Shown here: positions 3,547-17,411 of the stretch, piece by piece
Numbering within the stretch: the stretch's first letter is position 1
Layout of the letters: each line of letters begins with the position of its first letter
NCBI GenBank assembly: GCA_014860565.1
Contig: JACZJN010000162.1
Location: 14,739 to 78,738, forward strand
Origin: Bacteroidota bacterium
Lineage (GTDB): Bacteria; Bacteroidota; Ignavibacteria; SZUA-365
DNA length: 64,000 bases
Direction: 5' to 3'
Notes under the pieces: model-generated
What the model was told of the DNA's origin: nothing
The model's database searches: none
Seen by the model: the letters and a program-made list of their open reading frames with translations, nothing else
Program-made: the position numbers and the translations under genes

Positions 3547-3710
3547 GGGTATCGTTTCTTCGTGTATTCTGGAAGTATGAAAAAAAACTTCATGCCGGGC
3601 AATGCCGTTCTTCATCCGGGTCGCAAGGATATGAAGCCGTGGTTTCGTATCATTCCGCATGTCCTCTCAGCCAGATTCGATTGCACCGTTGTTTTGAAAG
3701 GTCCCGACGC

Positions 3711-4679
3711 ATGCCTTTGCTCTGTAATTACTATCTGACCTATCGCTGCAATGCGTACTGTGCATTCTGCCATTTCGGAGATCACGGTGCGTTTCGCGAT
3801 GCGAGGCATGCCCGCACCGAGGATGTGCTCAGGAACATTGCGGACCTGCGTACTCTGGGTGTGCGCTTCGTCGATCTGACCGGAGGGGAACCGCTGCTTC
3901 ATCCGGATATCGCCCGCATCGCTGCGGAAACACGGCGGCTTGGCATGAAGGCGAGCATCACAACCAATGCGCTGCTGTACCCGAAACATGCAGAGGCTCT
4001 GGCAGGGAATGTTGATCTGCTGCACTTTTCTCTCGACAGCGCGGATCCATTGCAGCATAACGCAATGCGTGGCGTGGATTGCTTCGATCACGTGCTCGAA
4101 AGCATTGTCATCGCAAAGGACCTCGGCGAGCGGCCTGATCTGCTCTTTACTGTCACGAATGAGAACGTCGATCAGATGGAGGGGGTGTACGAAATTGCGC
4201 GGCGGTACGGACTGATGTTGCTGTTGAATCCCGTCTTTCGATATTTTCGCGAGGAAGGGCTCAGCGATGAGGCCATAGCACAGACCGAGCGATTCTCCCG
4301 CAAACCCATGGTCTACCTCAATCCATCATTTCTCACACTGCGACGTAAAGGAGGGAACAGCATCGACGATCCCCTCTGCAAGGCAGTTTCCCGCGTGGTC
4401 GTGATTTCACCGGATAACGAAATTCTCCTGCCGTGCTACCACCTGCACTATGAAAAACTGCCCATCGGAGAAAGCCTGAAGCATGCATGGCAATCGGAGC
4501 GTGTCCGCTGGCATCAGAAGCACGAGGGGAGGCACGAATTCTGTGAGGGATGCACCATCAACTGTTATTTCGAACCGTCATTCGCATATCCGACGAATCT
4601 CCTTTCGCTGGCGTCAGTGCCGTCCAAGATCAAATACGGGTATTCGAAATACCTCGTGCAATCTCTCCGGAAACGGTAA
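3711..4679 (+). CDS. Radical SAM enzyme with a C-terminal Cys-rich auxiliary-cluster-like region (SPASM/twitch-like).
   Basis: MPLLCNYYLTYRCNAYCAFCHF contains the CX3CX2C radical-SAM motif. A GGEPLL glycine-rich SAM-binding motif follows. The C-terminus has Cys residues spaced ...PCYHLH...(30)...FCEGCTINCYF. The gene is divergent from the AlbA_2 regulator gene. Confidence 0.8.
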   Translation: MPLLCNYYLTYRCNAYCAFCHFGDHGAFRDARHARTEDVLRNIADLRTLGVRFVDLTGGEPLLHPDIARIAAETRRLGMKASITTNALLYPKHAEALAGNVDLLHFSLDSADPLQHNAMRGVDCFDHVLESIVIAKDLGERPDLLFTVTNENVDQMEGVYEIARRYGLMLLLNPVFRYFREEGLSDEAIAQTERFSRKPMVYLNPSFLTLRRKGGNSIDDPLCKAVSRVVVISPDNEILLPCYHLHYEKLPIGESLKHAWQSERVRWHQKHEGRHEFCEGCTINCYFEPSFAYPTNLLSLASVPSKIKYGYSKYLVQSLRKR

Positions 4680-4712: not shown

Positions 4713-4778
4713 TGCAGCGGGAACAATCACGCCGCCGCATCGGTCAGCAGCGGGAACAATCACGCCGCCGCGTCCGTC
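4713..4778. repeat. Two tandem 33-bp direct repeats: a perfect 25-bp core GCAGCGGGAACAATCACGCCGCCGC plus an 8-bp tail (ATCGGTCA / GTCCGTCA).
   Basis: Read directly from the sequence: copies at 4713-4745 and 4746-4778, 31/33 identical. They sit in the intergenic region between the radical SAM gene and moxR. Confidence 0.9.
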
Positions 4779-4976
4779 AAATGAGATTGTGCCGCCCGGA
4801 CACCCACCCGTAGCCCGCGAAAAGGATAGGGCGCTTTATTTGGGTTTGCGTGAGATTCCATTCGATGATTATTTTTCCCTGATAGTATTTTTTGCTGGGA
4901 TCTCCGATACGCGCGTATGCGATCCGGAAGCCCGCCCACAGTTTCGATCATCATCATTCGGACCATTGGAGTGCCA

Positions 4977-5966
4977 ATGCAAGTGAATATCCAGGAAATC
5001 AACGAACGCATCCAACAGGAAAGCGCATTTGTCGACGCCCTGAAAATGGAAATCGGTAAAGTCATCATCGGCCAGAAGGGAATGGTCGAACGGCTGCTGA
5101 TCGGCCTGCTCGGCGACGGCCACATTCTGCTCGAAGGCGTGCCGGGTCTGGCGAAGACCACGGCCATCAAAACGCTCGCCGCGTCGATGAAAGCCAGTTT
5201 CCACCGAATCCAGTTTACCCCCGATCTGCTCCCGGCCGATCTTGTGGGAACCATGATCTACAATCAGAAGAACGGCGAGTTCCAGACCAAGCAGGGACCG
5301 GTCTTCGCAAATTTCATCCTTGCCGATGAAATCAACCGTTCCCCCGCGAAAGTACAGAGCGCCCTTCTAGAGGCCATGCAGGAGCGGCAGGTGACGATTG
5401 GAGAACATACGTACCCGCTCCCGAAGCCGTTTCTCGTCATGGCAACGCAGAATCCTATTGAACAGGAAGGAACCTATCCGTTGCCCGAAGCGCAGGTAGA
5501 TCGTTTCATGCTGAAAATCAAAATCGATTACCCTTCGCGGGAAGAGGAGTTGGCCATCATGCGCCAGCAGATCTCGCAGGAAATTCCCGTTCCCAACCCC
5601 GTTGTTTCTGTTGACGATGTTATCCGTGCACGAGACGCCATGCACGCTGTGTATATGGATGAGAAAATCGAACGCTACATTCTTGACATCGTGGAAGCGA
5701 CCCGGCGGCCGCGCGATTTCAAGCTCGACCGCATCAGCAGCTACATCGCATACGGCGGCTCCCCGCGCGCGACCATCAACCTTGCTATCGCGGGAAAGGC
5801 GCATGCTTTCGTCAACCGGCGCGGGTACGTGATTCCTGAAGACATCCGCGCGATCTGTTTCGATGTCCTCCGCCATCGCGTCGCCGTCACCTATGAAGCC
5901 GAGGCAGAGGAAATGAACTCCGAAATGATCGTGCAGGAAATTCTCGACACCATCGAGGTTCCCTGA
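4977..5966 (+). CDS. MoxR-family AAA+ ATPase, first gene of the Bat-type operon.
   Basis: Walker A GVPGLAKT, Walker B ILADEINR, and the MoxR-typical N-terminal segment ...IIGQKGMVERLLIGLLGDGHILLEGVPG. Confidence 0.9.
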   Translation: MQVNIQEINERIQQESAFVDALKMEIGKVIIGQKGMVERLLIGLLGDGHILLEGVPGLAKTTAIKTLAASMKASFHRIQFTPDLLPADLVGTMIYNQKNGEFQTKQGPVFANFILADEINRSPAKVQSALLEAMQERQVTIGEHTYPLPKPFLVMATQNPIEQEGTYPLPEAQVDRFMLKIKIDYPSREEELAIMRQQISQEIPVPNPVVSVDDVIRARDAMHAVYMDEKIERYILDIVEATRRPRDFKLDRISSYIAYGGSPRATINLAIAGKAHAFVNRRGYVIPEDIRAICFDVLRHRVAVTYEAEAEEMNSEMIVQEILDTIEVP

Positions 5967-5968
5967 TC

Positions 5969-6844
5969 TTGGATACGAAACAGATTTTAAAAAATGTCCG
6001 GCAGATCGAGATCCGCACGCGCGGTCTGGTCAACCAGCTCTTCTCGGGTGAATACCATTCCGTCTTCAAGGGACGCGGGATGGAGTTCTCCGAGGTGCGC
6101 GAATACCAGTTCGGTGATGACGTACGCACAATTGACTGGAACGTATCGGCGCGATTCAATCGTCCTTTTGTGAAGGTGTTCGAGGAAGAGCGCGAACTGA
6201 CGGTCATGCTGCTCGTGGACATGAGCGGATCGCAGGATTACGGCACTTCGATCAAGTTCAAACGCGATACCGCGGCTGAACTCTGTGCCGTGCTCGCATT
6301 CAGTGCGATCAAGAACAACGACAAGGTCGGCATGATCATTTTCACCGATCACATCGAGAAGTTCATTCCGCCCAAGAAAGGACGATCCCACATTCTGCGC
6401 ATCATCCGTGACATCATTGCCTTCGAACCCGAGGGCAGTGGTACGGATATACGTGCAGCCCTCGAGTACTTCAACCACGTGACCAAGAAGCGCTCCATCG
6501 CATTTCTCGTTTCTGACTTCATGGACGAGGGGTATGACCGTCCATTGAAGATCGTCGCACGCAAACACGACCTTATTGCTGTCGAATTGTCCGATCCGAG
6601 GGAGAAAAATCTTCCGGATATTGGGTTGGTGAAGTTGCGCGATGCGGAGTCCGGTGCGGAAAAGTGGGTTGATACCTCGCGCTCCGCGGTGCGCGAAGCG
6701 TACCGGCGAAAATGGGAAGAGCGCGGTGCGGATCGCCGACGCCAATTCCTCCTGTCGAACGTCGATAGCATTTCCATCGATGTGCAGCAGGGCTACATCC
6801 AACCACTGGTTGAATTTTTCCGCATGAGGGAGAAACGCTACTGA
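5969..6844 (+). CDS. DUF58 family protein (MoxR partner with a VWA-like fold).
   Basis: A TTG start lies 2 nt after the moxR stop. Motifs GEYHSVFKGRGMEFSEVREYQFGDDVRTIDWNVSAR and LLVDMSGS match DUF58 hallmarks. The TGATG stop/start overlaps the next gene. Confidence 0.85.
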   Translation: MDTKQILKNVRQIEIRTRGLVNQLFSGEYHSVFKGRGMEFSEVREYQFGDDVRTIDWNVSARFNRPFVKVFEEERELTVMLLVDMSGSQDYGTSIKFKRDTAAELCAVLAFSAIKNNDKVGMIIFTDHIEKFIPPKKGRSHILRIIRDIIAFEPEGSGTDIRAALEYFNHVTKKRSIAFLVSDFMDEGYDRPLKIVARKHDLIAVELSDPREKNLPDIGLVKLRDAESGAEKWVDTSRSAVREAYRRKWEERGADRRRQFLLSNVDSISIDVQQGYIQPLVEFFRMREKRY

Positions 6845-7890
6845 TGAAACGCATTTTCTGGGCCATTCTGTTTTTCACAACTCTCCATTATGGCGGACAG
6901 GCACAGGACGTCAAGGTGTCGGCGACCGTGGATTCTCTCCGATATCAGATTGGAGATTGGATCACACTTCATCTCACCGTGGATGCACCTTCGACCTACA
7001 CCGTGCGCCTTCCGGCGACTGACGATGATTTCGAGGGCGGCGATTTCATTTCTGCCGGGAAAGCGGAAATGGAGACACACGGCAAGCGCAAGGAATATCG
7101 ACAGGATGTCGTCACGACCATTTTCGATACCGGAAGCATCGCACTTCGTGTACGTGTGCAATACACCATGCCTGGTGATACGGCGTCGTTCATATCTTTC
7201 AGTCCCCGGATCAATTTCGAGATCAGTACCGTCGCATTGGACACGGCGCAGAGCTTCAAGGACATCAAAGAAGTCATGCATGTTCCCTTGACCCTGTGGG
7301 ATTATCTGCTTTACGCAGCCGTCGTGCTGATGCTTGTCCTCGTTGGCTGGTTTGGGTATCGCTGGTATCAGAAGCGTAAGAACAGGCCGGAAGAAATACT
7401 CGAGGAAGCGGAACCGGAGATCCCGGCGTACGTGGTCGCTTTGGATGCGCTTCAGACGCTGCGCGAGCGCAAGCTCTGGCAAAGCGGCCAGCATAAGGCC
7501 TACCAGTCGCAGGTAACCGATATCCTCCGCGCGTACATCGAACGACGCTTCCGTCTCCCGGCAATGGAACAGACCACGTCTGAAATCATTCCCAGACTCG
7601 CGATGCTCGGGCTCTCCCCGCACCTCGTCGAACAAGTGGAGCAGGTCTTGCACACCGCGGATTTCACGAAATTCGCCAAGTACATACCGTCATCGATGCA
7701 GCATGAAGACTCCATGACGGTTTCGGTCCAGTTTGTAGAAAGCACCAAACCCATCGCGGATGCTGCGAACGCTCCGGCTGCCGGCCCTGCTACTCTACAG
7801 GCGGCTTCCACGCACGTTGCCACTGTGGACGAAACGGGCTCCGATCTCACTGATGCTCATGGTAGTGAAGGAGGGACACGCGATGTTTGA
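6844..7890 (+). CDS. Membrane protein with a signal peptide and a single central TM helix; third gene of Bat operons (DUF4381-like).
   Basis: MKRIFWAILFFTTLHYGGQAQ is a signal peptide. The central TM LWDYLLYAAVVLMLVLVGWFGYRWYQKRK is followed by a charged stretch. The gene's end overlaps the batA start by 8 nt. Confidence 0.55.
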   Translation: MKRIFWAILFFTTLHYGGQAQDVKVSATVDSLRYQIGDWITLHLTVDAPSTYTVRLPATDDDFEGGDFISAGKAEMETHGKRKEYRQDVVTTIFDTGSIALRVRVQYTMPGDTASFISFSPRINFEISTVALDTAQSFKDIKEVMHVPLTLWDYLLYAAVVLMLVLVGWFGYRWYQKRKNRPEEILEEAEPEIPAYVVALDALQTLRERKLWQSGQHKAYQSQVTDILRAYIERRFRLPAMEQTTSEIIPRLAMLGLSPHLVEQVEQVLHTADFTKFAKYIPSSMQHEDSMTVSVQFVESTKPIADAANAPAAGPATLQAASTHVATVDETGSDLTDAHGSEGGTRDV

Positions 7891-8881
7891 GCATATCACC
7901 CAATTCGCAAATCCTGCGTTGCTCTGGCTGTTGCTTCTGATTCCGATACTCGTCGCCTGGCATATCTGGAAACAGGGTCGACTTACTTCCGCGTTGCGCC
8001 ATTCATCCCTCGCATTGTTTTCAGGCCTGCCGTCGAGCTGGCGCGTGCGGCTTCGCTTCATTCCCTTTGCTCTGCGTATGCTTGCCCTGGCGCTGCTAAT
8101 TGTCGCATTCGCCCGACCGCAGTCCTCCGCACGCGGAGAAAAGGTGTATCGCGAGGGTATCGATATCACTATCGTGCTTGATATCTCGGGTTCGATGCTC
8201 GCCGAGGATTTTCGACCCAACCGGCTCGAAGCGGCCAAGGATGTGGGGGAGGATTTCATCCGCGCACGAATAAACGATCGCATCGGACTTGTGATCTTCT
8301 CCGGTGAGAGTTTTACTCAGTGTCCCTTGACTACCGATTACAGTGTGCTTATCGATCTGCTGAAAAAGGTGGAAACCGGATATCTGCAAGACGGAACCGC
8401 GATCGGGGAAGGCATCGCAAACGCGGTCAACCGTATGAAGGACAGCAAATCGAAGAGCAAGGTGATGATCCTTCTCACCGACGGCGTGAATAACATGGGT
8501 TCGATCGATCCGGCGACGGCAGCAGAAATTGCGCGCACCTTCGGCATCCGCATCTACACCATCGGTGTGGGAACGCGTGGAATGGCGCCGTATCCCTTTA
8601 AAACGGCGTACGGCATTCAATATCAACCTGTACCTGTCGAGATCGACGAAGACATGCTCCGTCAGGTGGCGCAGATCACTGGTGGAGAGTATTTCCGTGC
8701 AACGGGCAACAAAAAGCTCCAACAGATTTACGAGGATATAGACAAGCTGGAGCGGACCAAAATAGAAGTCACGGAATTCCATCGCTATACGGAATTGTTC
8801 TATGATTACCTTCTGGCAGCGATGGCGGTGCTTCTGTTCGAACTCGCGCTTTCTTTGTTTGTCTTCCGAAAGATTCCCTGA
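7883..8881 (+). CDS. batA: BatA-type von Willebrand factor A domain membrane protein.
   Basis: An RBS GGAGGG precedes the ATG. There are two N-terminal TM helices. The VWA MIDAS-type motifs DITIVLDISGSM and ILLTDGVNN are present, with a C-terminal TM. Confidence 0.85.
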   Translation: MFEHITQFANPALLWLLLLIPILVAWHIWKQGRLTSALRHSSLALFSGLPSSWRVRLRFIPFALRMLALALLIVAFARPQSSARGEKVYREGIDITIVLDISGSMLAEDFRPNRLEAAKDVGEDFIRARINDRIGLVIFSGESFTQCPLTTDYSVLIDLLKKVETGYLQDGTAIGEGIANAVNRMKDSKSKSKVMILLTDGVNNMGSIDPATAAEIARTFGIRIYTIGVGTRGMAPYPFKTAYGIQYQPVPVEIDEDMLRQVAQITGGEYFRATGNKKLQQIYEDIDKLERTKIEVTEFHRYTELFYDYLLAAMAVLLFELALSLFVFRKIP

Positions 8882-8905
8882 TTCACGCAGAGGCATACGC
8901 CAGCA

Positions 8906-9958
8906 ATGATTAAATTCGCACATCCGGAATATTTCATCTACATGTTGATCCTGCCTGCCATTGCAGCGGCATTGTGGTTCACCTGGTATCTGAAAAATCG
9001 CAGCATTCGCAGCTATGGCGATCAGCGCAGCGTGCTTTCACTCGTGGACAGGCGCAGCCGTGTTAAGTTTTGGCTTCGCGGAGGGATCGTGCTCCTTGCC
9101 TTTGCCGCGCTCGTCACCGCATATGCCAATCCGCTGATCGGAACCAAGTTCGAGGAAGTCACTCGCAGCGGTATCGATCTCATTGTGGCTATCGACGTCT
9201 CTGCCAGTATGCGTGCAGAAGATATTCAACCGAACCGCATCAGCGCTGCCCGCAAGGAGCTTCAGAATCTGATCAACAACCTCAAGGGTGATCGCATCGG
9301 CATTATCGTTTTTTCGGGTGATGCCTATACGCAACTGCCCCTGACGTCTGATTACAGCGCGGCACTGATGCTGACCGACGTCATAGATGCGGGCATGGCC
9401 CCGACGCCCGGTACCGCAATCGGGTCCGCCATCGAATTGGCACGAGAATCCTTTCGCAAGGAGGAAGGGAAGTACAAGGCGATGGTCATCATCACCGATG
9501 GTGAAAATCATGAGGACGACCCCGTCGCAGCTGCGGCGGAGGCTGCCAATGAGGGCATCGTCATTCATACGATCGGGATGGGATCGCTCGAAGGTGCGCC
9601 GATTCCGCTTTCCGCAAGAGGGGGAGAGCAGGGGTATAAAAAGGATAATGACGGTTCGATGCTGCTTTCCCGTCTTGATGCAGAAACGTTGAAGAAAGTC
9701 GCTGCCACCACCGGAGGCACATTCACCCAGGCGCTCAGTGGGAGAGACAACCTCGCAACCGTCTTCGATCAGATCGAGCGCATGGAAAAAAAGGAATTTG
9801 GCACGAAGCAATTCACCGATTATGAAGACCGCTTTCAGTATCTGGTTCTTTTGGGTCTGATTCTCCTGATATCCGAACTTTTCCTATCGGAAACACGCAA
9901 TCGCTTCCTGGCGCGTTTTTCGATCTTTTCGCCCAACGACGAACGGAGGAGATCCTGA
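8906..9958 (+). CDS. batB: BatB-type von Willebrand factor A domain membrane protein.
   Basis: N-terminal TMs. VWA motifs DLIVAIDVSASM and VIITDGENH are present, with a C-terminal TM (YLVLLGLILLISELFL). Confidence 0.85.
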   Translation: MIKFAHPEYFIYMLILPAIAAALWFTWYLKNRSIRSYGDQRSVLSLVDRRSRVKFWLRGGIVLLAFAALVTAYANPLIGTKFEEVTRSGIDLIVAIDVSASMRAEDIQPNRISAARKELQNLINNLKGDRIGIIVFSGDAYTQLPLTSDYSAALMLTDVIDAGMAPTPGTAIGSAIELARESFRKEEGKYKAMVIITDGENHEDDPVAAAAEAANEGIVIHTIGMGSLEGAPIPLSARGGEQGYKKDNDGSMLLSRLDAETLKKVAATTGGTFTQALSGRDNLATVFDQIERMEKKEFGTKQFTDYEDRFQYLVLLGLILLISELFLSETRNRFLARFSIFSPNDERRRS

Positions 9959-9959
9959 C

Positions 9960-10811
9960 ATGAAGCTGCGCAAGATGGTAATCACCGTTGCGTTATCCAT
10001 TCTCGCCGCTGGCGCGCATGCACAGTCGTATCGCAGTACCGTCAACGACGGGAACGATTTGTACCACAATAAGCAGTACGATCGAGCGCGAGAGAAATAC
10101 GAACAGGCAGCCATCGAGGAGCCGGAGCGTCCTGAAAGCTTTTTCAATGCCGGCAATGCCGCGTATCGCAATAACGATATCAAGGCCGCGCTGGATAAAT
10201 ATGAGAAGGCGGGGCTCCGCGTCAAGGACAAACAGACACTTGCACGTACGTTATACAATGCCGGAAATACCTTTCTGAACGCCGCGGAAAAAGGCGAAGA
10301 GAATCCCGCCCTGAAACAGGCGGCCGGGGAAGAGGCGGGGAATCTGCAGATGGAGGGCTACAAACAGGCGATCGAGATGTACAAGAAAGCCCTGAAACTC
10401 GATCCCAACGATCAGGATGCGAGGTATAATCTGACCTACGCTCGGAAGAAACTCGAGGATCTGCAGAAGCAGCAGCAAAACCAGAACAAGGATCAGAACA
10501 AGGATAAGAAGGATCAGAAGCAGGATAAACAGAAGGATCAGAAGAATCAGGACAAGAACAAGCAGGAAGAGCAGCAGAAGAAGGACAAGCAGGATCAGGA
10601 AAAGCAAAAGCAACAGAACCAGAAGGACAACGAACAAAAGGATAAGGCAAAGCAGGATCAGCAGCAGCAGCCCCAGCCGCAGAAGGAACAAAACATGTCG
10701 AAGCAGCAGGCCGAACAAATCCTGCGTGCACTTCAGAGAGATGAAAAAGAATTGCAGAAGAAGAAAAGGCAGCAGCAGGGACGCCGTATCAATGTCGAAA
10801 AAGACTGGTGA
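9960..10811 (+). CDS. batC: BatC-type TPR-repeat protein with a K/D/Q-rich low-complexity C-terminal region.
   Basis: Signal peptide, then TPR-like repeats (YNAGNAAYRNNDIKAALDKYEKA; YNAGNTFLNAA). The gene sits between the batB- and batD-type genes. Confidence 0.75.
   Translation: MKLRKMVITVALSILAAGAHAQSYRSTVNDGNDLYHNKQYDRAREKYEQAAIEEPERPESFFNAGNAAYRNNDIKAALDKYEKAGLRVKDKQTLARTLYNAGNTFLNAAEKGEENPALKQAAGEEAGNLQMEGYKQAIEMYKKALKLDPNDQDARYNLTYARKKLEDLQKQQQNQNKDQNKDKKDQKQDKQKDQKNQDKNKQEEQQKKDKQDQEKQKQQNQKDNEQKDKAKQDQQQQPQPQKEQNMSKQQAEQILRALQRDEKELQKKKRQQQGRRINVEKDW
10468..10700. repeat. Low-complexity purine-rich coding repeat (imperfect AAGGATCAGAA-like units) encoding the KDQ-rich tail of BatC.
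   Basis: Direct reading shows repeated cagaacaaggatcagaacaaggataagaaggatcagaagcaggataaacagaaggatcagaag... Confidence 0.8.
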
Positions 10812-10817
10812 CACAAC

Positions 10818-12659
10818 ATGATCCGGCGCACACTTCTATCGATTGTTATCGTCGCATTGTCGCTGCAGGTCCTGCACGCGCAGGAAACTCAGTTTTTCTG
10901 TAGTGTTGACCGCACCGAGGTGCCCGTCGGTCAGCAGTTTCAGGTAACCTATACGCTTTCTGGCGGGAGTTTGAGGCAATACAGCAATTTTCGGGCTCCC
11001 GATCTCAACCGGAATTTCATGACGCTCGCCGGCCCGTCGTCCTCACAGCAGATGCAGATTATCAACGGACGGGTTTCCGCGAGTATCTCATGGATTTACG
11101 TACTTCAGCCCCGCAATACGGGAACCTTCACCGTCCCTGCCGCGACGATCACCTACGACGGAAAATCCATGACGTCCAATACGGTGAGTATCAAGGTGAC
11201 ACGCGCGGTCCCGAATGCAGGGGGCGCGAATCAGCAGAAGCAGCAGGACAATACACCAGATGTGGATCTTGGCGATAACCTCTTTATTCGCGCGATTCCG
11301 AATCGGACGTCTGTCTATCTGGGTGAACCACTCACCGTCACCTATAAGCTTTATTCAAGGGTCGCATTTCAGCTCGATAATCCGATTAAACTTCCACGCA
11401 TGGTGGGATTCTGGTCGGAAGACATAGAAGCTCCCACGCAGTTGCAGCCTCGTGTCGAAGTCTATAACGGCCGTCAATATGAAACGTACATGCTTCGGAA
11501 AGTCCTCTATTTCCCCACGCAGTCAGGAAAGCTTACGATCGAGCCCTTTGAAATCGGCACAACGGTACGGGTACGGAAGCAGCGAAAAACAGGAAACGAT
11601 GCATTTGATCGCTTCTTCAGCGATCCACTGTTTGACAGCTATGATCATGTGAAAAAAAATCTCCTCACCCAGAAGGTGAACGTCACCGTGCGACCGCTTC
11701 CTGAAGACGGTCAGCCAAAGGGATTCTCCGGGGTAGTCGGTTCGTATGAGATGCGAGCGACGCTGGATCGCAACGCGATGAAAGCCAATGAAACCGCCAC
11801 TCTCAAAGTTGTCTTAACGGGGAAGGGCAATATTCGCCTTCTGGATGAACCGGTGATCACATTCCCGTCGGGCGTCGACCATTACGATCCGACCATCGAT
11901 GAGGACGCCAAGCCCCTTGACGGAACGCTTTCCGGCAGCAAGACATTCGAATACCTCCTTGTCCCTCGATACGCGGGGAAGGTCACCATACCGCCGGTTG
12001 TTTTCTCGTTTTTCGATCTCGACCTGAAGAAATATGTGACGCTTGAATCCCAGGCCTTTACTCTCGATATCGCCGAGGGAGACGTGCGTAAGAACGCAGG
12101 CGATCTCACTCAGAAATATGTCGATTACCTGTCCATGGATGTACGGGGAATACGTGAAGGCACCCCTCGTTTCGATAAAAACGTCTCGCACGGCATTCGG
12201 CCATTAATCATGTTGCTCTGCTATCTCATACCGGTAGTGCTGTTATTTGCCGCGCTCATGTGGAAGCAGCGATTCGACCGTTTGCATACCGATGTCGCCG
12301 GCATGAAGCGGCGGAAGGCGACGCGTGTTGCCGAACGTCGTTTGAGCGAATCGAAGAAGCATCTCGAGGCGGGGAACATCGATGCCTATTACCTGGAAAT
12401 CGCACGCGCGCTCTGGGGATATGTGCAGGACAAGCTTGATATTCCGACGTCCGAGACCGCAATCGATACCGTAATAGTACGTCTTCGAAATAGGAATGTG
12501 GATGAACTCGTCGCGGACAGGATGCGCAACGCCCTCGAAGCGGTTGAGTATGCACGGTTTTCACCGTCGAGGGCCAGTACCGACGAAATGCGCGCGTTGT
12601 ATGACCAGGCAAAAGAAGCCATTATCCAAACGGAGCAGGCGATGAGGTCCGTCGTATGA
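10818..12659 (+). CDS. batD: BatD-type protein (large secreted protein with a C-terminal TM anchor).
   Basis: 613 aa with a signal peptide and a TM near the C-terminus (LIMLLCYLIPVVLLFAALMW). It occupies the batD position, and its ATGA stop/start overlaps batE. Confidence 0.8.
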   Translation: MIRRTLLSIVIVALSLQVLHAQETQFFCSVDRTEVPVGQQFQVTYTLSGGSLRQYSNFRAPDLNRNFMTLAGPSSSQQMQIINGRVSASISWIYVLQPRNTGTFTVPAATITYDGKSMTSNTVSIKVTRAVPNAGGANQQKQQDNTPDVDLGDNLFIRAIPNRTSVYLGEPLTVTYKLYSRVAFQLDNPIKLPRMVGFWSEDIEAPTQLQPRVEVYNGRQYETYMLRKVLYFPTQSGKLTIEPFEIGTTVRVRKQRKTGNDAFDRFFSDPLFDSYDHVKKNLLTQKVNVTVRPLPEDGQPKGFSGVVGSYEMRATLDRNAMKANETATLKVVLTGKGNIRLLDEPVITFPSGVDHYDPTIDEDAKPLDGTLSGSKTFEYLLVPRYAGKVTIPPVVFSFFDLDLKKYVTLESQAFTLDIAEGDVRKNAGDLTQKYVDYLSMDVRGIREGTPRFDKNVSHGIRPLIMLLCYLIPVVLLFAALMWKQRFDRLHTDVAGMKRRKATRVAERRLSESKKHLEAGNIDAYYLEIARALWGYVQDKLDIPTSETAIDTVIVRLRNRNVDELVADRMRNALEAVEYARFSPSRASTDEMRALYDQAKEAIIQTEQAMRSVV

Positions 12660-13420
12660 AGATCATGATTCGCGTGTTGCTTCTGCTGATTGCCGCCACG
12701 GCACTCTCCTATGCGCAGTCTGCGACGCCACTGGAACGATACCGGGAGGCCGTCGCACACTATAAGAAAGCCGAATACCGTGAAGCCGTTCAAATTTTCA
12801 AGGAATTGATCGACGAGGGATACGTCAATTACGATCTTTACTACAACCTCGGAAACGCGGCCTATAAAAACGGTGATCTGGGTACCAGTGTTTTATCTTA
12901 TGAACGCGCGTTGACTCTCGACCCGGGGAATGAAAATGTAACGCATAATCTCAATGTCGTGCGTGCACGCCTGCGCGACCGAGTCGAGCCAATGCCCCTG
13001 CTCTTTTTCGTGAAGTGGTGGAATGACATCAAGGACTCCCATTCTCCCAACATCTTCTTTTCCTGGTCGCTCGTCTTTTTATTCCTCCTCGCCGCAGCCG
13101 TTTTTGTGTTCTTCGGCTATCGACAGCTCATACTCCGTCGGATAGCACTGATTGCCGGGATTCTATTCTTCACCGTGTTTGCTTCGGCGCTGACGCTCAC
13201 GATTACCAGAACCGAAGAACTCGATGCCCATCGATCTGCGGTGATCATGACGACGGAAGTGACAGTGCGGAGCACCCCGGATGCCACTGGGGTCGAAAGT
13301 TTCATCGTTCATGAAGGATTGAAAGTCGTCATTCTGGAATCGAAAAACGAGTTCTATAGGATACGGCTGGCGGACGGGAAGAGCGGTTGGGTGGAGAGGA
13401 CGGCGCTTGCCCGAATCTGA
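12656..13420 (+). CDS. batE: BatE-type TPR / TM / SH3b-like protein.
   Basis: Signal peptide, then TPR repeats (YNLGNAAYKNGDLGTSVLSYERALTLDP), two TM helices, and a C-terminal SH3-like segment (YRIRLADGKSGWVERTAL). Confidence 0.75.
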   Translation: MKIMIRVLLLLIAATALSYAQSATPLERYREAVAHYKKAEYREAVQIFKELIDEGYVNYDLYYNLGNAAYKNGDLGTSVLSYERALTLDPGNENVTHNLNVVRARLRDRVEPMPLLFFVKWWNDIKDSHSPNIFFSWSLVFLFLLAAAVFVFFGYRQLILRRIALIAGILFFTVFASALTLTITRTEELDAHRSAVIMTTEVTVRSTPDATGVESFIVHEGLKVVILESKNEFYRIRLADGKSGWVERTALARI

Positions 13421-13474
13421 TCGGTTGTATCTTTCTCGAGACCGTTGTAATATGCCTTTTGTGCAATTCACCTG

Positions 13475-14257
13475 ATGGCCTTCATGCGAAAGAGTATCCT
13501 TATTCTCTGTTTTCTCGTCCTGCCGGCCTTGGCATTTGCCGGTCGGCCTCCAGGCGGCGAGGATGACATCTTGCGTCCGGTTCCCTGGAGTATGCATGTC
13601 GGTCCTTACGCTGGTGGCGCGTGGATACTCAGCCAGGGGAACTTCAACACGCTGTGCGATTGCGAATACGGGAGCGGGAGCGGCGTGGGGTTTCAACTCG
13701 GTGCCTTTGCCGACTATCCATTGACGAATGACGTTTCTCTCTTCGCCACCCTGGGATACCGCATGCTAAATGCCGTCTATGAAAAGTCTCAGCAGAGGTT
13801 GGAGTACGTCCCTGTTTCTGGTGGTGGCGATTTCATGTGGGTGGATTTCGACCTCGAAACCCGGCTTTCGATCTCATTGATGGATATCAGTCTCGCAGCA
13901 AAATGGGATCTTCCCGTGAAGGGACTCTACCTGGCGGCCGGACCTGAATTCGGCCTTTCTCTCCTCGATAATATCGAAGAGACCGAAACTATTACCACGC
14001 CCGGACTGACCTACGACTCAAACGGGCAGGGGAAACAGACATTCATGGACGATAACCTGGACAGGTACTATTCCGATGCCGCGTCGTTCCGACTCGGTTT
14101 TGCAGCTCGTCTGGGATATATCCTCCCGATACATGAACGACTGGCTATTGCACCCGAACTGAGTATGTCGCTGCCGCTGACTCCTGTTGCATCCGACTAC
14201 GGCAGTTGGAGGCTCATGGCCTGGCAATTCAACGTATACCTCCGCTTCGCAATTTAA
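13475..14257 (+). CDS. Small outer-membrane β-barrel protein, paralog A, with a CDCEY motif.
   Basis: 260 aa with a signal peptide and amphipathic β-strands. It shares blocks with the next ORF: GLYL..G..FG, E.ITTPG, and the C-terminal PEL....PLT.V. Confidence 0.6.
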   Translation: MAFMRKSILILCFLVLPALAFAGRPPGGEDDILRPVPWSMHVGPYAGGAWILSQGNFNTLCDCEYGSGSGVGFQLGAFADYPLTNDVSLFATLGYRMLNAVYEKSQQRLEYVPVSGGGDFMWVDFDLETRLSISLMDISLAAKWDLPVKGLYLAAGPEFGLSLLDNIEETETITTPGLTYDSNGQGKQTFMDDNLDRYYSDAASFRLGFAARLGYILPIHERLAIAPELSMSLPLTPVASDYGSWRLMAWQFNVYLRFAI

Positions 14258-14279
14258 CACTCCATAAACCGGGGATCTC

Positions 14280-15062
14280 ATGGTATCCACTTCCTCGATA
14301 GTAAAACGCTGTGCGTCGCTGCTTGTCCTTCTGACCGTGCTGTTCGCAACCGATGGCAGTGCGCAGCGTCTGCAGAACTATCACGGATTCCAGCAAACCT
14401 ATCCCGGCGCAATAGCGATCGGTGTTCAGACTGGCCCGAATTTCAATTTTGCCGCCAGTGGCCCTTACGCAGATTGCGACTGTACTTTTGATGGCGGAAG
14501 CGGTATCGGATACCATGCGGGACTACATTTGGATATCCTCGTAAACCATTGGTTTGGTATACGTTTGCAGGGTTTATATGAAGACCATTCCACCGTATAC
14601 GTCAAGGATTTCGCCGGTAGCACCTTTGGTGATGACGGTGCGCCCGCTGCCGTCAACATCCAGCGAAGGGCGGAGGTTGGAATCCGATACCTAAGCACGT
14701 CTTTCATGCTCACCTGGGTCACCGGCCCGCAAGGGCTCTACCTTCTCTCCGGAGCCTCCTTTGGCTTTTTTCTTGATGGAACCCTCAAGGACGAGGAGTA
14801 TATCACCACGCCGGGCTATGTGTATCCTGGAACAAGTACAAGCCGCACGGTCTTTGCAGACGAGGGACTTGACGCGGCGCAGGATCTTCCGATGCGGGGT
14901 GGAATTGTCATCGGCGTCGGGTACGATCTTCCTCTTGCAAGAGGAATTTCCCTGGGTCCTGAGTTGCAGTTCGATTATCCACTTACCGCAGTGGTTGACG
15001 GCAATGCCGATTGGAATATCCCTTCACTCCGGGCCTCGGTTGCTTTGCGATTCGGACTTTGA
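14280..15062 (+). CDS. Small outer-membrane β-barrel protein, paralog B, with a CDCTF motif.
   Basis: 260 aa with a signal peptide. It is collinear with paralog A (QGLYLLSGASFGFFLDGTLKDEEYITTPG versus KGLYLAAGPEFGLSLLDNIEETETITTPG). Confidence 0.6.
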   Translation: MVSTSSIVKRCASLLVLLTVLFATDGSAQRLQNYHGFQQTYPGAIAIGVQTGPNFNFAASGPYADCDCTFDGGSGIGYHAGLHLDILVNHWFGIRLQGLYEDHSTVYVKDFAGSTFGDDGAPAAVNIQRRAEVGIRYLSTSFMLTWVTGPQGLYLLSGASFGFFLDGTLKDEEYITTPGYVYPGTSTSRTVFADEGLDAAQDLPMRGGIVIGVGYDLPLARGISLGPELQFDYPLTAVVDGNADWNIPSLRASVALRFGL

Positions 15063-15090
15063 CGCATATTCCGTAGAGATTTACGCTTGA

Positions 15091-15765
15091 ATGAAAACAC
15101 AGCAGATTGATACCACACTAGCAGCGATGATTGACCATACGCTGCTGAAGCCGGACGCGGGAGAGAACGATATTCTGCGCCTTTGCGATGAATCGCGTGT
15201 CTATGGTTTTGCATCGGTCTGCGTCAATCCAAGCTGGGTACGTCTCTGCAGCAACGTGCTTCGGGAATCCACGAGCAGCGTTTGTACGGTGATCGGATTT
15301 CCCCTCGGCAGCAATCGTACCGAGGTGAAAGTACGTGAAGCGGAAATGGCTATCCAGGATGGTGCGGTGGAATTCGACATGGTGCTCCACGTAGGGCGTC
15401 TCAAACAGGGAGACGCGGCCTACGTTGAGCACGACATCGCGGCTGTCACCGAAGCCGTGAAGGCTGCCTCGGAGAAATATATCGTCAAGGTAATACTCGA
15501 GACCTGCCTTCTTTCAGCAGATGAGATTCGCAACGCCAGCGCGATTGTCCGGAATACCGGGGCCGATTTCGTTAAAACCTCAACCGGCTTCAGCAGCGGC
15601 GGCGCCACGGTCGATTCGGTGCGGCTGATGCGTGCTGTCGTTGGAGAAGGATTCGGAGTGAAAGCAAGCGGCGGCATCCGGAATCGCCAGACAGCGATTC
15701 AAATGATCGAAGCAGGAGCAAACCGCATCGGTGCAAGTTCGAGTATAGAAATTGTCAGTACGTGA
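15091..15765 (+). CDS. deoC: Deoxyribose-phosphate aldolase.
   Basis: IDHTLLKP, VCVNP, and the Schiff-base lysine region VKASGGIR followed by a C-terminal AGANRIGASS. Confidence 0.9.
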   Translation: MKTQQIDTTLAAMIDHTLLKPDAGENDILRLCDESRVYGFASVCVNPSWVRLCSNVLRESTSSVCTVIGFPLGSNRTEVKVREAEMAIQDGAVEFDMVLHVGRLKQGDAAYVEHDIAAVTEAVKAASEKYIVKVILETCLLSADEIRNASAIVRNTGADFVKTSTGFSSGGATVDSVRLMRAVVGEGFGVKASGGIRNRQTAIQMIEAGANRIGASSSIEIVST

Positions 15766-15782
15766 TGATAGACGGAGGAATT

Positions 15783-16370
15783 ATGTCCATTGGCACATTC
15801 ATGAAGAGATTTTCGCTGTTTCTTATTTCTGCCTTCCTCCTGGGATGCAGTTCCAGCGATGAACTTGGCAAAACGGATCAGCAAAAACCGGACGAAAACG
15901 GCGCGTTTCAACGCGTCGACAAGGAAGAGCCCATTATTCCTGAGACCGATGAGCCTGTGACGCTCGAGGCTGTCGAGGATGAAGATGTCCCCACGAGTGA
16001 GACTCCCGTCCCAATGAAGGCTGCTTCCACAAAAGAGACACCTCCAACCGAGGCCGCACCTCCTTCACGTCAGGAATCTGTTCCCGTGCAGGCTGCTCCC
16101 TCAGCTTCGCCAACATCGGTTCCGCGCTCGGGCAGTATGATGTGGAGCGTGCAGCTTGGTGCCTTTAAAAGCGAGGCGGGCGCCTTCCAACTGATCGAGG
16201 AAGTCAAACAGAAATTCAATCAGCCGGTTTACAAGCGCTACGATCCGGTGACCGGGTACTATAAGGTAACGTTGGGTTCTTATCAGACGCGGGAGCAGGC
16301 TGCTGAATTCAAACTGGAAGTCCAGTCTCGCGGTTATCCGGATGCATTTACCGTGGAGGTGGCGCGTTAA
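15783..16370 (+). CDS. SPOR-domain lipoprotein.
   Basis: An RBS GGAGGA is present and the lipobox is LLGCSSS. A Pro/Thr/Glu-rich linker precedes a C-terminal SPOR-like fold (WSVQLGAFKSEAGAFQLIEEVK...YKVTLGSYQTREQAAEF). An in-frame GTG at 15762 is an alternative start. Confidence 0.7.
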   Translation: MSIGTFMKRFSLFLISAFLLGCSSSDELGKTDQQKPDENGAFQRVDKEEPIIPETDEPVTLEAVEDEDVPTSETPVPMKAASTKETPPTEAAPPSRQESVPVQAAPSASPTSVPRSGSMMWSVQLGAFKSEAGAFQLIEEVKQKFNQPVYKRYDPVTGYYKVTLGSYQTREQAAEFKLEVQSRGYPDAFTVEVAR

Positions 16371-16397
16371 TTTCTGTGATGGCTGCCGTTTGATGTA

Positions 16398-16913
16398 ATG
16401 AACATTCCCAGGTGGACATATTGCTTTTTGGTCGTAGGCGGAGCCTTGATTTTCTCCGCCTGTTCATCCAGTGAAGAAACTGCGAAAGATGCTCCCGGGA
16501 AATCAATCCGGGAGCATGAAGGGAACTTTGATCCGACGGAGTACCGTCGGAAGCCAGCAGAGCCGAAAGAGAATGCAGGGGAAGGGGAGATAAAAGCAAA
16601 GCCGGTGGAGCCCGCCTGGGTGGAGCGGACGGAAAAGTCTATGGGCTTTCGTGTCCAGCTCTACTCCACAACCAATATTGACGACGCCAAAGCCGTGCTC
16701 GAGCAAATGCGCTCGCGAATAGATTCACTGCACATCGAGGCGGGGAGGCTGGATATGAGTTTCGATGCCCCTTACTATAAAATTCGCGCAGGAGATTTTC
16801 TGGTGAGGGCGAAGGCCGATACGCTTCGTGAGCAATTACGTTCCGCAGGGCTCTCCGAGGCCTGGGTTGTCAGGGATAACGTGTTCCGAGTGATTCGGGA
16901 ACGGAAGAAATGA
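16398..16913 (+). CDS. SPOR-domain lipoprotein, second copy.
   Basis: Lipobox IFSACSS. The C-terminal SPOR-like fold reads GFRVQLYSTTNIDDAKAVLEQMRS...YYKIRAGDFLVRAKADTLREQL. Confidence 0.7.
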   Translation: MNIPRWTYCFLVVGGALIFSACSSSEETAKDAPGKSIREHEGNFDPTEYRRKPAEPKENAGEGEIKAKPVEPAWVERTEKSMGFRVQLYSTTNIDDAKAVLEQMRSRIDSLHIEAGRLDMSFDAPYYKIRAGDFLVRAKADTLREQLRSAGLSEAWVVRDNVFRVIRERKK

Positions 16914-16914
16914 A

Positions 16915-16946
16915 GAACGCGCTCCGTTTGGGAGCGCGTTCTTTTT
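16915..16946. terminator. Strong intrinsic terminator that could act in both directions, ending the long plus-strand cluster and also serving the minus-strand gene at 16965.
   Basis: A perfect 11-bp stem GAACGCGCTCC/GGAGCGCGTTC with loop GTTTG, followed by TTTTT. Confidence 0.8.
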
Positions 16947-16964: not shown

Positions 16965-17411
16965 TCAGTCTTTGCTGACGAGAAGCTTCTGTTCAAGCTG
17001 CTTGGCAACCATAGTGAAGAATCCGTTCATGTCGTTCGTTGCCGTTGCAAGTTTTGGATCTATTAATCGTGGGGAGGAAAAAACCGTGCTCGCCAGGGAT
17101 GCCTTGTAGCGAATGCAGTGCGTGCGGCCATCCTTCACAAGATCGTCGATGGCGGTCTCCAGTGCTGCGAACTCCTGTTCCGGATATGCGATACGAAGAT
17201 GGAGGGCGTAGTACAAGCTGGATTCGACCAGGCCGTTATTTTCCGAGCTGAGCCCTGCGGTATAATTGGCTTCCGCCTCGGCAAGTCTGTCGATACGGGT
17301 TATTCCGAGTCCCGGGACTCCCTCGATAGCATCATTGTTCGGCTGTGCCCTGAGTACGGACATTCCTGCGATGGTCAGCAGGACGATCAAGATAGTGTGG
17401 ATGGTTTTCAT
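16965..17411 (-). CDS. Hypothetical small secreted protein.
   Basis: 148 aa. Signal peptide MKTIHTILIVLLTIAGMSVLRAQ. No recognisable motif. Confidence 0.45.
   Translation of the reverse strand: MKTIHTILIVLLTIAGMSVLRAQPNNDAIEGVPGLGITRIDRLAEAEANYTAGLSSENNGLVESSLYYALHLRIAYPEQEFAALETAIDDLVKDGRTHCIRYKASLASTVFSSPRLIDPKLATATNDMNGFFTMVAKQLEQKLLVSKD

Follow-up and report, generated by a model that had tools for sequence, protein, structure and literature searches.

The complete Bat (Bacteroides aerotolerance) operon described in the literature consists of eight genes, moxR, DUF58/pa3071, a hypothetical gene and batA to batE, and it ends at batE (PMC7500135). Bat/MoxR-VWA genes are widespread, but what they do at the molecular level has not become clear since 1999, and a gene set stably linked to them in one clade provides candidate partners. 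Here we describe a 64-kb stretch of contig JACZJN010000162.1 from a Bacteroidota bacterium (the window, to whose positions all coordinates below refer), in which the same eight genes, in the same order, are followed by genes for two outer-membrane β-barrel proteins (OMP1 and OMP2), by deoC and by genes for two SPOR-domain lipoproteins (SPOR1 and SPOR2). The barrel, deoC and SPOR genes are extra to the Bat operon, specific to one clade, and have a promoter-like element of their own upstream. A first-pass annotation, made from the letters of the window, had taken their association with Bat genes to be possibly undescribed, which agrees with the published extent of the operon. We propose, with middling confidence, that the barrels and the SPOR lipoproteins may form a split OmpA/Pal-like tether from the outer membrane to peptidoglycan, encoded by a separate unit stably linked to the Bat cluster; the proposal draws on sequence comparison, predicted structures and gene context.

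Each component is of a known kind. In the OmpA/OprF and Pal systems, OmpA and OprF combine an N-terminal eight-stranded barrel with a C-terminal OmpA_C domain, whereas OMP1 and OMP2 are without OmpA_C: wall binding here lies with the SPOR domain on separate lipoproteins, and loop 1 carries an invariant C-x-C motif that is not in OmpA. PF13568 comprises generic small outer-membrane barrels of the Bacteroidota type, the annotation that most of the homologues bear, but the signature C-x-C-[YF]-x-x-G-x-G in loop 1 sets off a sub-branch within this family. The septal SPOR proteins (RlpA, FtsN, DedD, DamX) have a similar C-terminal SPOR domain, and RlpA, likewise an outer-membrane lipoprotein, is the best NCBIfam match; however, SPOR1 and SPOR2 lack both a lytic transglycosylase (DPBB) domain and an FtsN-type membrane anchor, being short proteins with only an acidic/Pro-rich linker. 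Finally, PorE-type proteins (PD40 + CarboxypepD_reg + OmpA_C) adjoin distant C-x-C barrels and cargo genes of the type IX secretion system (T9SS), again a barrel with a peptidoglycan binder, although that context has no Bat genes and the window locus no T9SS genes. What is new, and partly supported, is a proposed tether of C-x-C barrels and SPOR lipoproteins, conserved beside Bat in one uncultured lineage.

The C-x-C barrels and their putative peptidoglycan-binding partners

With 29% identity over 206 residues (E 2e-23), OMP1 and OMP2 are paralogues, as the first-pass annotation had stated. A comparison with the Pfam OMP_b-brl families, suggested at the same time, placed OMP2 in PF13568 (OMP_b-brl_2, cut-off 27 bits) with 38.2 bits and left OMP1 marginally below the gathering score with 26.4 bits; as a clear paralogue of OMP2, OMP1 can probably be counted with this family all the same. 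The Pfam scan found no match to PF00691, the OmpA-like peptidoglycan-binding domain, in either protein, the NCBIfam matches placed neither in an OmpA family at the sequence level, and the model NF049866 of the TDE1717 family barrel (cut-off 135 bits) gave 25.7 bits for OMP1 and no match for OMP2. OMP1 and OMP2 formed separate clades in a neighbour-joining tree of the barrels, the deep nodes of which were poorly resolved.

The AlphaFold model of OMP1 (predicted local distance difference test, pLDDT, 88; predicted template modelling score, pTM, 0.75) has eight long strands at residues 41-54, 68-82, 87-112, 119-145, 151-173, 205-220, 223-234 and 246-259, with short turns on one side and longer loops on the other. 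Strands β3-β5 of this model are long (~25 residues) and would protrude past the membrane. OMP2 was modelled with a pLDDT of 82, and Foldseek matched its model to Ail, OmpA, NspA and OmpX; the structural matches of the barrels also include OmpW. The signal peptide, the eight strands and the matches to solved barrels together point to an eight-stranded outer-membrane barrel as the predicted fold. Barrels of the OmpA-TM/OmpX/OmpW type have both termini in the periplasm, and because of this topology the segment between β1 and β2, where the models place the C-x-C motif, is presumably the first extracellular loop. The position of the motif in the predicted models had been a check proposed with the first-pass annotation.

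Outer-membrane barrels rarely contain cysteine, and the first-pass annotation had drawn attention to a conserved Cys-Asp-Cys motif in the two proteins. Both cysteines are indeed invariant, in 26 of 26 aligned members of the two paralogue families, but the aspartate is not: the middle residue is D, N or Q, and the motif is therefore C-x-C rather than CDC. The pair represents the only cysteines of mature OMP1 and of mature OMP2. As the sole cysteine pair, invariant and placed in a short loop, these residues are most likely joined in a local disulfide, which would stiffen loop 1 of the modelled barrels. An exhaustive profile search retrieved 1624 representative homologues at E ≤ 1e-3, 460 at E ≤ 1e-10 and 39 at E ≤ 1e-30. 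Among the best 150 of the 1624 representatives, cysteines occupy both aligned columns in 91, mostly as C-x-C and in some as C-x-x-C, and further 'CC-P' variants were found; the Cys-bearing representatives mostly have just two or three cysteines in total. By these alignments, C-x-C is typical of a wide and uncharacterised branch within PF13568 and not a feature peculiar to this locus. A description of the C-x-C barrel sub-branch was found neither in the literature searched nor in NCBIfam.

OMP1-type barrels (OMP1 residues 23-35, window 13541-13579) also bear a conserved N-terminal peptide ahead of β1, PPGG-E[ED]D[IV]LRP-VP, which reads EDDILRPVP in OMP1 itself and is of low confidence in the AlphaFold model. 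E[ED]D[IV]LRP recurs in the divergent relatives P0059, P0065, P0074 and P0076 (P0xxx denotes homologous proteins and L0xx related loci); in the alignment comparison it was not found in OMP2, in the barrel of the outgroup locus L026 or in the barrels of T9SS contexts. The peptide could be a periplasmic docking motif.

Barrels of this family are paired with peptidoglycan binders in three ways. Long homologues of 445-813 aa make up 27 of the best 150, and in 26 of these 27 OmpA-family domains follow C-terminal to the barrel; the three checked in detail had two matched OmpA-family stretches each. Distant C-x-C barrels (~20-25% identity), from Kapabacteria-titled and other metagenome-assembled genomes (MAGs) and far from bat, are found directly after a PD40+CarboxypepD_reg+OmpA-domain gene and before one or two Por_Secre_tail genes for T9SS cargo of 1250-1300 aa (L021:6121-16644, L022:6154-16659 and L023:6747-12777), which suggests that the distant barrel may play a PorP-like role. 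The third pairing is that with the SPOR lipoproteins, the copy number of which co-varies with that of the barrels: two barrels and two SPOR genes in the core clade of close relatives, one and one in the outgroup L026.

Many of the long homologues (P0109, P0116, P0128, P0168 and 23 others, alignment A8) contain 'CC-P' or 'L-x-C-G' instead of C-x-C. Assignment of the barrel-OmpA fusions to the CHU_0125 'outer membrane integrity' family was rejected, with 18 bits against a cut-off of 620. Searches of the literature on PF13568 together with SPOR, and on Kapabacteria together with aerotolerance, found nothing relevant.

Characterised SPOR domains recognise denuded glycan strands at division sites, in the septum. 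SPOR1 and SPOR2 scored 45.1 and 39.7 bits against PF05036 (SPOR, cut-off 21 bits), and SPOR2 is a distant paralogue of SPOR1 (25% identity, E 4e-4). All 13 orthologues in alignment A9 have the lipobox cysteine, with SSS[DE]E after it, and together with the domain scores this invariant cysteine confirms the earlier description of both proteins as SPOR lipoproteins. A full-length match to the RlpA model NF007953 was not obtained, the 44.9 bits (cut-off 201) coming from the SPOR end alone (model positions 211-358), and the FtsN model NF050813 gave 16.4 bits against a cut-off of 300. Since orthologues begin with 'MS[IV]R' about 22 residues ahead of the lipobox cysteine, SPOR1 probably starts at the ATG at 15783, giving a deoC-SPOR1 gap of +17 nt in agreement with the 12-19 nt seen in relatives; the −4 overlap reported earlier holds only for the upstream GTG at 15762. 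The preceding gene, deoC, matches the TIGR00126 equivalog over its full length with 256.7 bits (cut-off 117.3). It lies within the block in nearly all loci, is apparently absent from L025, and looks like a passenger gene.

Conservation next to batE and probable transcript boundaries

The open reading frame (ORF) list shows 13 co-oriented genes on the + strand between ~4.9 and 16.9 kb. The first eight form the Bat part (4977-13420, +), with all published genes co-oriented in one cluster in canonical order, and OMP1, OMP2, deoC, SPOR1 and SPOR2 follow batE. ORFs and family matches thereby reproduce the gene order of the first-pass annotation, two 260-aa barrel paralogues, deoC and two SPOR lipoproteins 3' of batE. 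Its gaps of 55, 22, 28 and −4 nt needed partial revision: 54 nt separate the batE stop from OMP1, 22 nt OMP1 from OMP2, 28 nt OMP2 from deoC and 27 nt SPOR1 from SPOR2, while the −4 becomes, probably, the +17 nt given above.

The order batE–OMP1–OMP2–deoC–SPOR1–SPOR2 is kept in every core-clade locus long enough to show it, about 20 non-identical loci from uncultured organisms represented by MAGs titled Bacteroidetes, Bacteroidota or Ignavibacteria bacterium. The co-occurrence with batE in relatives that had been put forward as a check is thus found in every related locus reaching far enough. In L007, L024 (a 5.24-Mb contig) and L036, different genes come after the SPOR pair and the block itself is intact; the rearrangements in L007, L024, L026 and L036 all lie past the SPOR genes, and none of them separates batE from the barrel. 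Flanking genes are syntenic as well: the ~25-kb region from a radical-SAM gene to DUF4921, mostly with Big_5, YceG and TsaD, is broadly syntenic across the clade, so that common descent by itself accounts for part of the adjacency signal.

More distant relatives retain parts of the arrangement. The barrel P0061 (36% identity to OMP1) has a TPR gene before it and, after it, a 259-aa gene and then DeoC, and the L025 barrel (35% identical) is preceded by a BatE C-terminus (49% identity, E 9e-23) and followed by a lipoprotein-type N-terminus, CSGSEES. The outgroup L026 has a full Bat cluster, then one barrel (29% identical to OMP1 and 28% to OMP2), deoC, one SPOR1-type lipoprotein and two polyamine genes. 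Because L026 has one barrel and one SPOR gene, the ancestral unit probably consisted of one of each, both of which would have been doubled in the window's clade. The two polyamine genes of L026 (12293-14270) encode CN_hydrolase and PAD_porph proteins of the N-carbamoylputrescine amidase and agmatine deiminase type, for polyamine synthesis, and follow SPOR on the same strand with overlapping stop and start; metabolic passenger genes join the unit readily.

Word-indexed searches returned only ~50 close barrel relatives, and every one of them came from a Bacteroidetes- or Bacteroidota-titled MAG. A metagenome scan with the intermediate-clade alignment A6 yielded no confirmed relative, and one with BatE recovered the same clade only, its patterns being clade-specific, so that Bat clusters of other phyla were not sampled. 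Alignments A1 (mixed OMP1 and OMP2) and A5 (divergent OMP1-like) were too variable for pattern scans.

No junction of the block is longer or varies more than that between batE and OMP1, with 31-184 nt across loci; the others are mostly shorter than 35 nt or overlapping. Alignment of this gap from 14 loci (A7) brought out two conserved blocks, CGGTTGTATCTTT–N12–GTTGTAATATGCC, separated by a spacer of constant length and variable letters. The corresponding TTGTAT-N17-TAATAT stands 22-50 nt before the OMP1 start codon, is unique within the window, and occurs in at least 20 loci, including L027, L030-32 and L036, with TTGGAT-N17-CAATAT in the outgroup L026. It emerged from the cross-locus alignment, as a generic sigma-70 scan passed over it on account of its −35 box, in which only 3 of 6 positions match. 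Since conserved boxes around a free spacer are a promoter signature, the barrel, deoC and SPOR genes probably have their own promoter. In the window and in L003, L024 and L026, the batE-OMP1 gap contains no + strand terminator-like site, and read-through from the Bat promoter is therefore possible.

Transcription of the Bat unit presumably starts 5' of moxR, at the sole TTTG-N18-22-TAnnTTT match in the window; a matching GGTTTGC...TA(t/a)TTT element is present in the same gap of L007, L008, L012, L018 and L024. At the other end, an intrinsic terminator common to SPOR2 and a convergent gene (16965-17411) has a 13-bp stem with 8 GC pairs, a 5-nt loop and T-runs on both strands, and is the strongest site scanned. 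The terminator hairpin noted earlier after SPOR2 was thus correctly recognized, although its stem has 13 rather than 11 bp; the terminator occupies 16913-16943, where 16915 had been noted. Weak terminator-like matches are located inside OMP1 (13936) and OMP2 (14749).

A proposed split tether weighed against other readings

A split tether is the most economical model for the module because of the three pairings, with OmpA domains by fusion, with OmpA-domain neighbours, and with SPOR lipoproteins of co-varying copy number. OMP1 and OMP2 would serve as outer-membrane anchors and the SPOR lipoproteins as peptidoglycan binders in trans, possibly preferring denuded septal glycan, so that barrel and partner lipoprotein together would act as an OmpA/Pal-like tether in two parts. 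The predicted C-x-C disulfide would stiffen the first, presumably surface-exposed loop. deoC would travel in the unit as a passenger, and transcription would start from the module's own promoter, perhaps with read-through from bat, and end at the bidirectional terminator.

Several points weigh against this model. Contact between barrel and SPOR lipoprotein is deduced from gene context and from distant fusions, which bear OmpA_C and not SPOR, and deoC, which encodes a cytoplasmic enzyme, sits in the middle of the cluster, so that its genes do not share one kind of function. A C-x-C disulfide is strained and seldom seen, and the data would suit metal binding or intermolecular disulfides just as well; the structure is a predicted one, with loop orientation and Cys-Cys distance read from strand order alone. 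The −35 box of the promoter-like element agrees with TTGACA at 3/6 positions, and the element, which contains a GTTGTA direct repeat, could instead be a regulator-binding site. Finally, the organism is known from metagenome assemblies only, and the module is known here from its genes alone.

The first-pass annotation had joined the whole run into a single 12-kb operon. If so, the barrel, deoC and SPOR genes would be true distal Bat genes and their products one trans-envelope machine with the Bat proteins; for example, the periplasmic TPR/SH3 part of BatE might dock the N-terminal peptide of OMP1 and thereby join the MoxR/VWA complex with the outer membrane and with the wall at the septum. The shared strand, the short gaps and a run free of terminators until 16913 leave such an operon partly open, and the adjacency of batE and barrel in every locus examined, down to 29-36% barrel identity and with differing downstream context, fits it too, as does the conserved proline-containing E[ED]D[IV]LRP motif of OMP1-type barrels. 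However, the longest and most variable junction of the block is exactly the one with the conserved promoter-like element, and for this reason one 12-kb operon does not appear to be the best reading of the block. By the criterion that came with the first-pass annotation itself, a promoter of their own for the barrel genes speaks against a single operon. Published Bat operons end at batE, and Bat clusters are widespread whereas the OMP2-type barrel turned up in just 11 of the 185,579 species-representative genomes. The radical-SAM and Big_5/YceG/TsaD neighbours are likewise syntenic, so that adjacency is weak evidence, and the L026 barrel is without the EDDILRP motif. We regard a single Bat machine as unlikely. 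A bolder version, in which Bat/MoxR-VWA and barrel/SPOR proteins would be one trans-envelope assembly, with the TPR or SH3 part of BatE gripping the OMP1 peptide (PPGGEDDILRPVP), SPOR fixing the complex to septal peptidoglycan and the surface C-x-C loop serving as an oxygen- or redox-sensitive switch, seems very improbable to us; if true, it would assign a definite role in the envelope to the 'aerotolerance' genes, which have long gone unexplained.

At the opposite end, the adjacency could be purely historical: an independent housekeeping envelope unit may have come to lie beside bat in the clade ancestor, with no functional coupling. The broad synteny of the ~25-kb region, the promoter-like element belonging to the barrel/deoC/SPOR cluster itself and the distant C-x-C barrels away from bat are all as expected from such a history, which the rearrangements in L007, L024, L026 and L036 speak against by sparing the batE-barrel junction, weakly, as these are few independent events. 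We judge pure history to be possible, if somewhat unlikely; the adjacency is compatible with a functional link, but the independent events are few. Alternatively, the barrels alone might act as a surface adhesin or small channel of the Ail/OmpX/OmpW type, with C-x-C sensing redox state or metals and the SPOR genes as unrelated neighbours. Structural matches including Ail, OmpX, NspA and OmpW, the protruding β3-β5 strands and the location of C-x-C in the first loop would suit a surface protein, but the co-varying copy numbers of barrel and SPOR genes and the repeated occurrence of the family fused to or beside peptidoglycan-binding domains speak against it, and we consider this reading quite unlikely.

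Against these alternatives, the split tether beside Bat retains part of the earlier proposal of an envelope module attached to the aerotolerance genes: the batE-barrel adjacency is robust within the clade, while the promoter-like element, the restriction to a single clade, the relatives away from Bat and the lack of such genes in published Bat operons argue against a functional link. For the same reasons, the suggested new connection of Bat proteins with cell division stays speculative. The value of the locus is moderate, its components being of known kinds and its organism uncultured. The C-x-C barrel sub-family paired with peptidoglycan binders may outweigh the Bat link in value: it is large, apparently undescribed and represented by hundreds of representative clusters. 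Its repeated pairing, with OmpA_C in fusions, with PorE-like neighbours and with SPOR, suggests that Bacteroidota-related bacteria, which are not known to have Braun's lipoprotein, build their tethers from outer membrane to wall in a modular way.

Coordinates and neighbouring features

The features of the block are listed in Table 1, in which the Bat genes were assigned from Pfam matches in the window (BatD, TPR/SH3) and from the Pfam labels of orthologous loci.

Table 1. Positions of genes, motifs and putative transcription signals of the Bat and barrel/SPOR block in the window.
Feature	Position	Strand	Remarks
Promoter-like site 5' of moxR	4845-4876	+	TTTG-N21-TATTTTT; presumed start of Bat transcription unit
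moxR	4977-5966	+	
DUF58 gene	5969-6844	+	
Hypothetical gene of Bat cluster	6844-7890	+	
batA	7883-8881	+	
batB	8906-9958	+	
batC	9960-10811	+	
batD	10818-12659	+	PF13584, E 1.6e-49
batE	12656-13420	+	TPR, transmembrane segment and bacterial SH3
Promoter-like element	13423-13453	+	GGTTGTATCTTT-N12-GTTGTAATAT; 3 nt past batE stop; −35-like TTGTAT, 17-nt spacer, −10-like TAATAT
OMP1	13475-14257	+	260 aa; predicted secreted 8-stranded outer-membrane β-barrel; C-x-C at C61/C63
OMP1 C61-D62-C63 codons	13655-13663	+	Loop between strands 41-54 and 68-82 of the model; invariant in alignment A3
OMP2	14280-15062	+	260 aa; paralogous predicted 8-stranded barrel; C-x-C at C66/C68
OMP2 C66-D67-C68 codons	14475-14483	+	Invariant in A2 and A3; flanked by model strands 45-59 and 73-87
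deoC	15091-15765	+	Deoxyribose-phosphate aldolase, cytoplasmic; TIGR00126 equivalog
SPOR1 lipoprotein	15783-16370	+	ORF 15762-16370 from GTG; lipobox LLGC, acidic/Pro-rich linker, C-terminal SPOR domain
SPOR2 lipoprotein	16398-16913	+	Lipobox FSAC, C-terminal SPOR domain
Bidirectional intrinsic terminator	16913-16943	both	AAGAACGCGCTCC-GTTTG-GGAGCGCGTTCTT then TTTT

The Rfam scan found no RNA family in the block, its sole match being a tRNA at 2791-2863. Within the Bat cluster, the C-terminal tail of BatC (window 10440-10811) consists of ~90 residues of low-complexity K/Q/D/E (…QKQQQNQNKDQNKDKKDQKQDK…), and the strong AT skew of 0.24 in the 10-12 kb bin is due to it.

Every related locus reaching that far has the radical-SAM gene (window 3639-4679) immediately 5' of moxR, including the outgroup L026 and loci in which the genes further upstream differ; in this clade the gene may be tied to the Bat cluster by function. 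The intergenic region between this gene and moxR contains two perfect direct copies of a 25-mer, GCAGCGGGAACAATCACGCCGCCGC, 8 nt apart (4714-4771), upstream of the promoter-like site of moxR. The same gap in L008 holds four copies of an ~18-mer that is unrelated to the 25-mer of the window. The direct copies could be a regulator-binding array or merely a variable repeat.

At the far end of the block, the − strand gene that converges on the SPOR2 terminator encodes a secreted protein of 148 aa with no Pfam or NCBIfam match. Most loci of the clade have it in this place, even L024, in which all that lies beyond is different.

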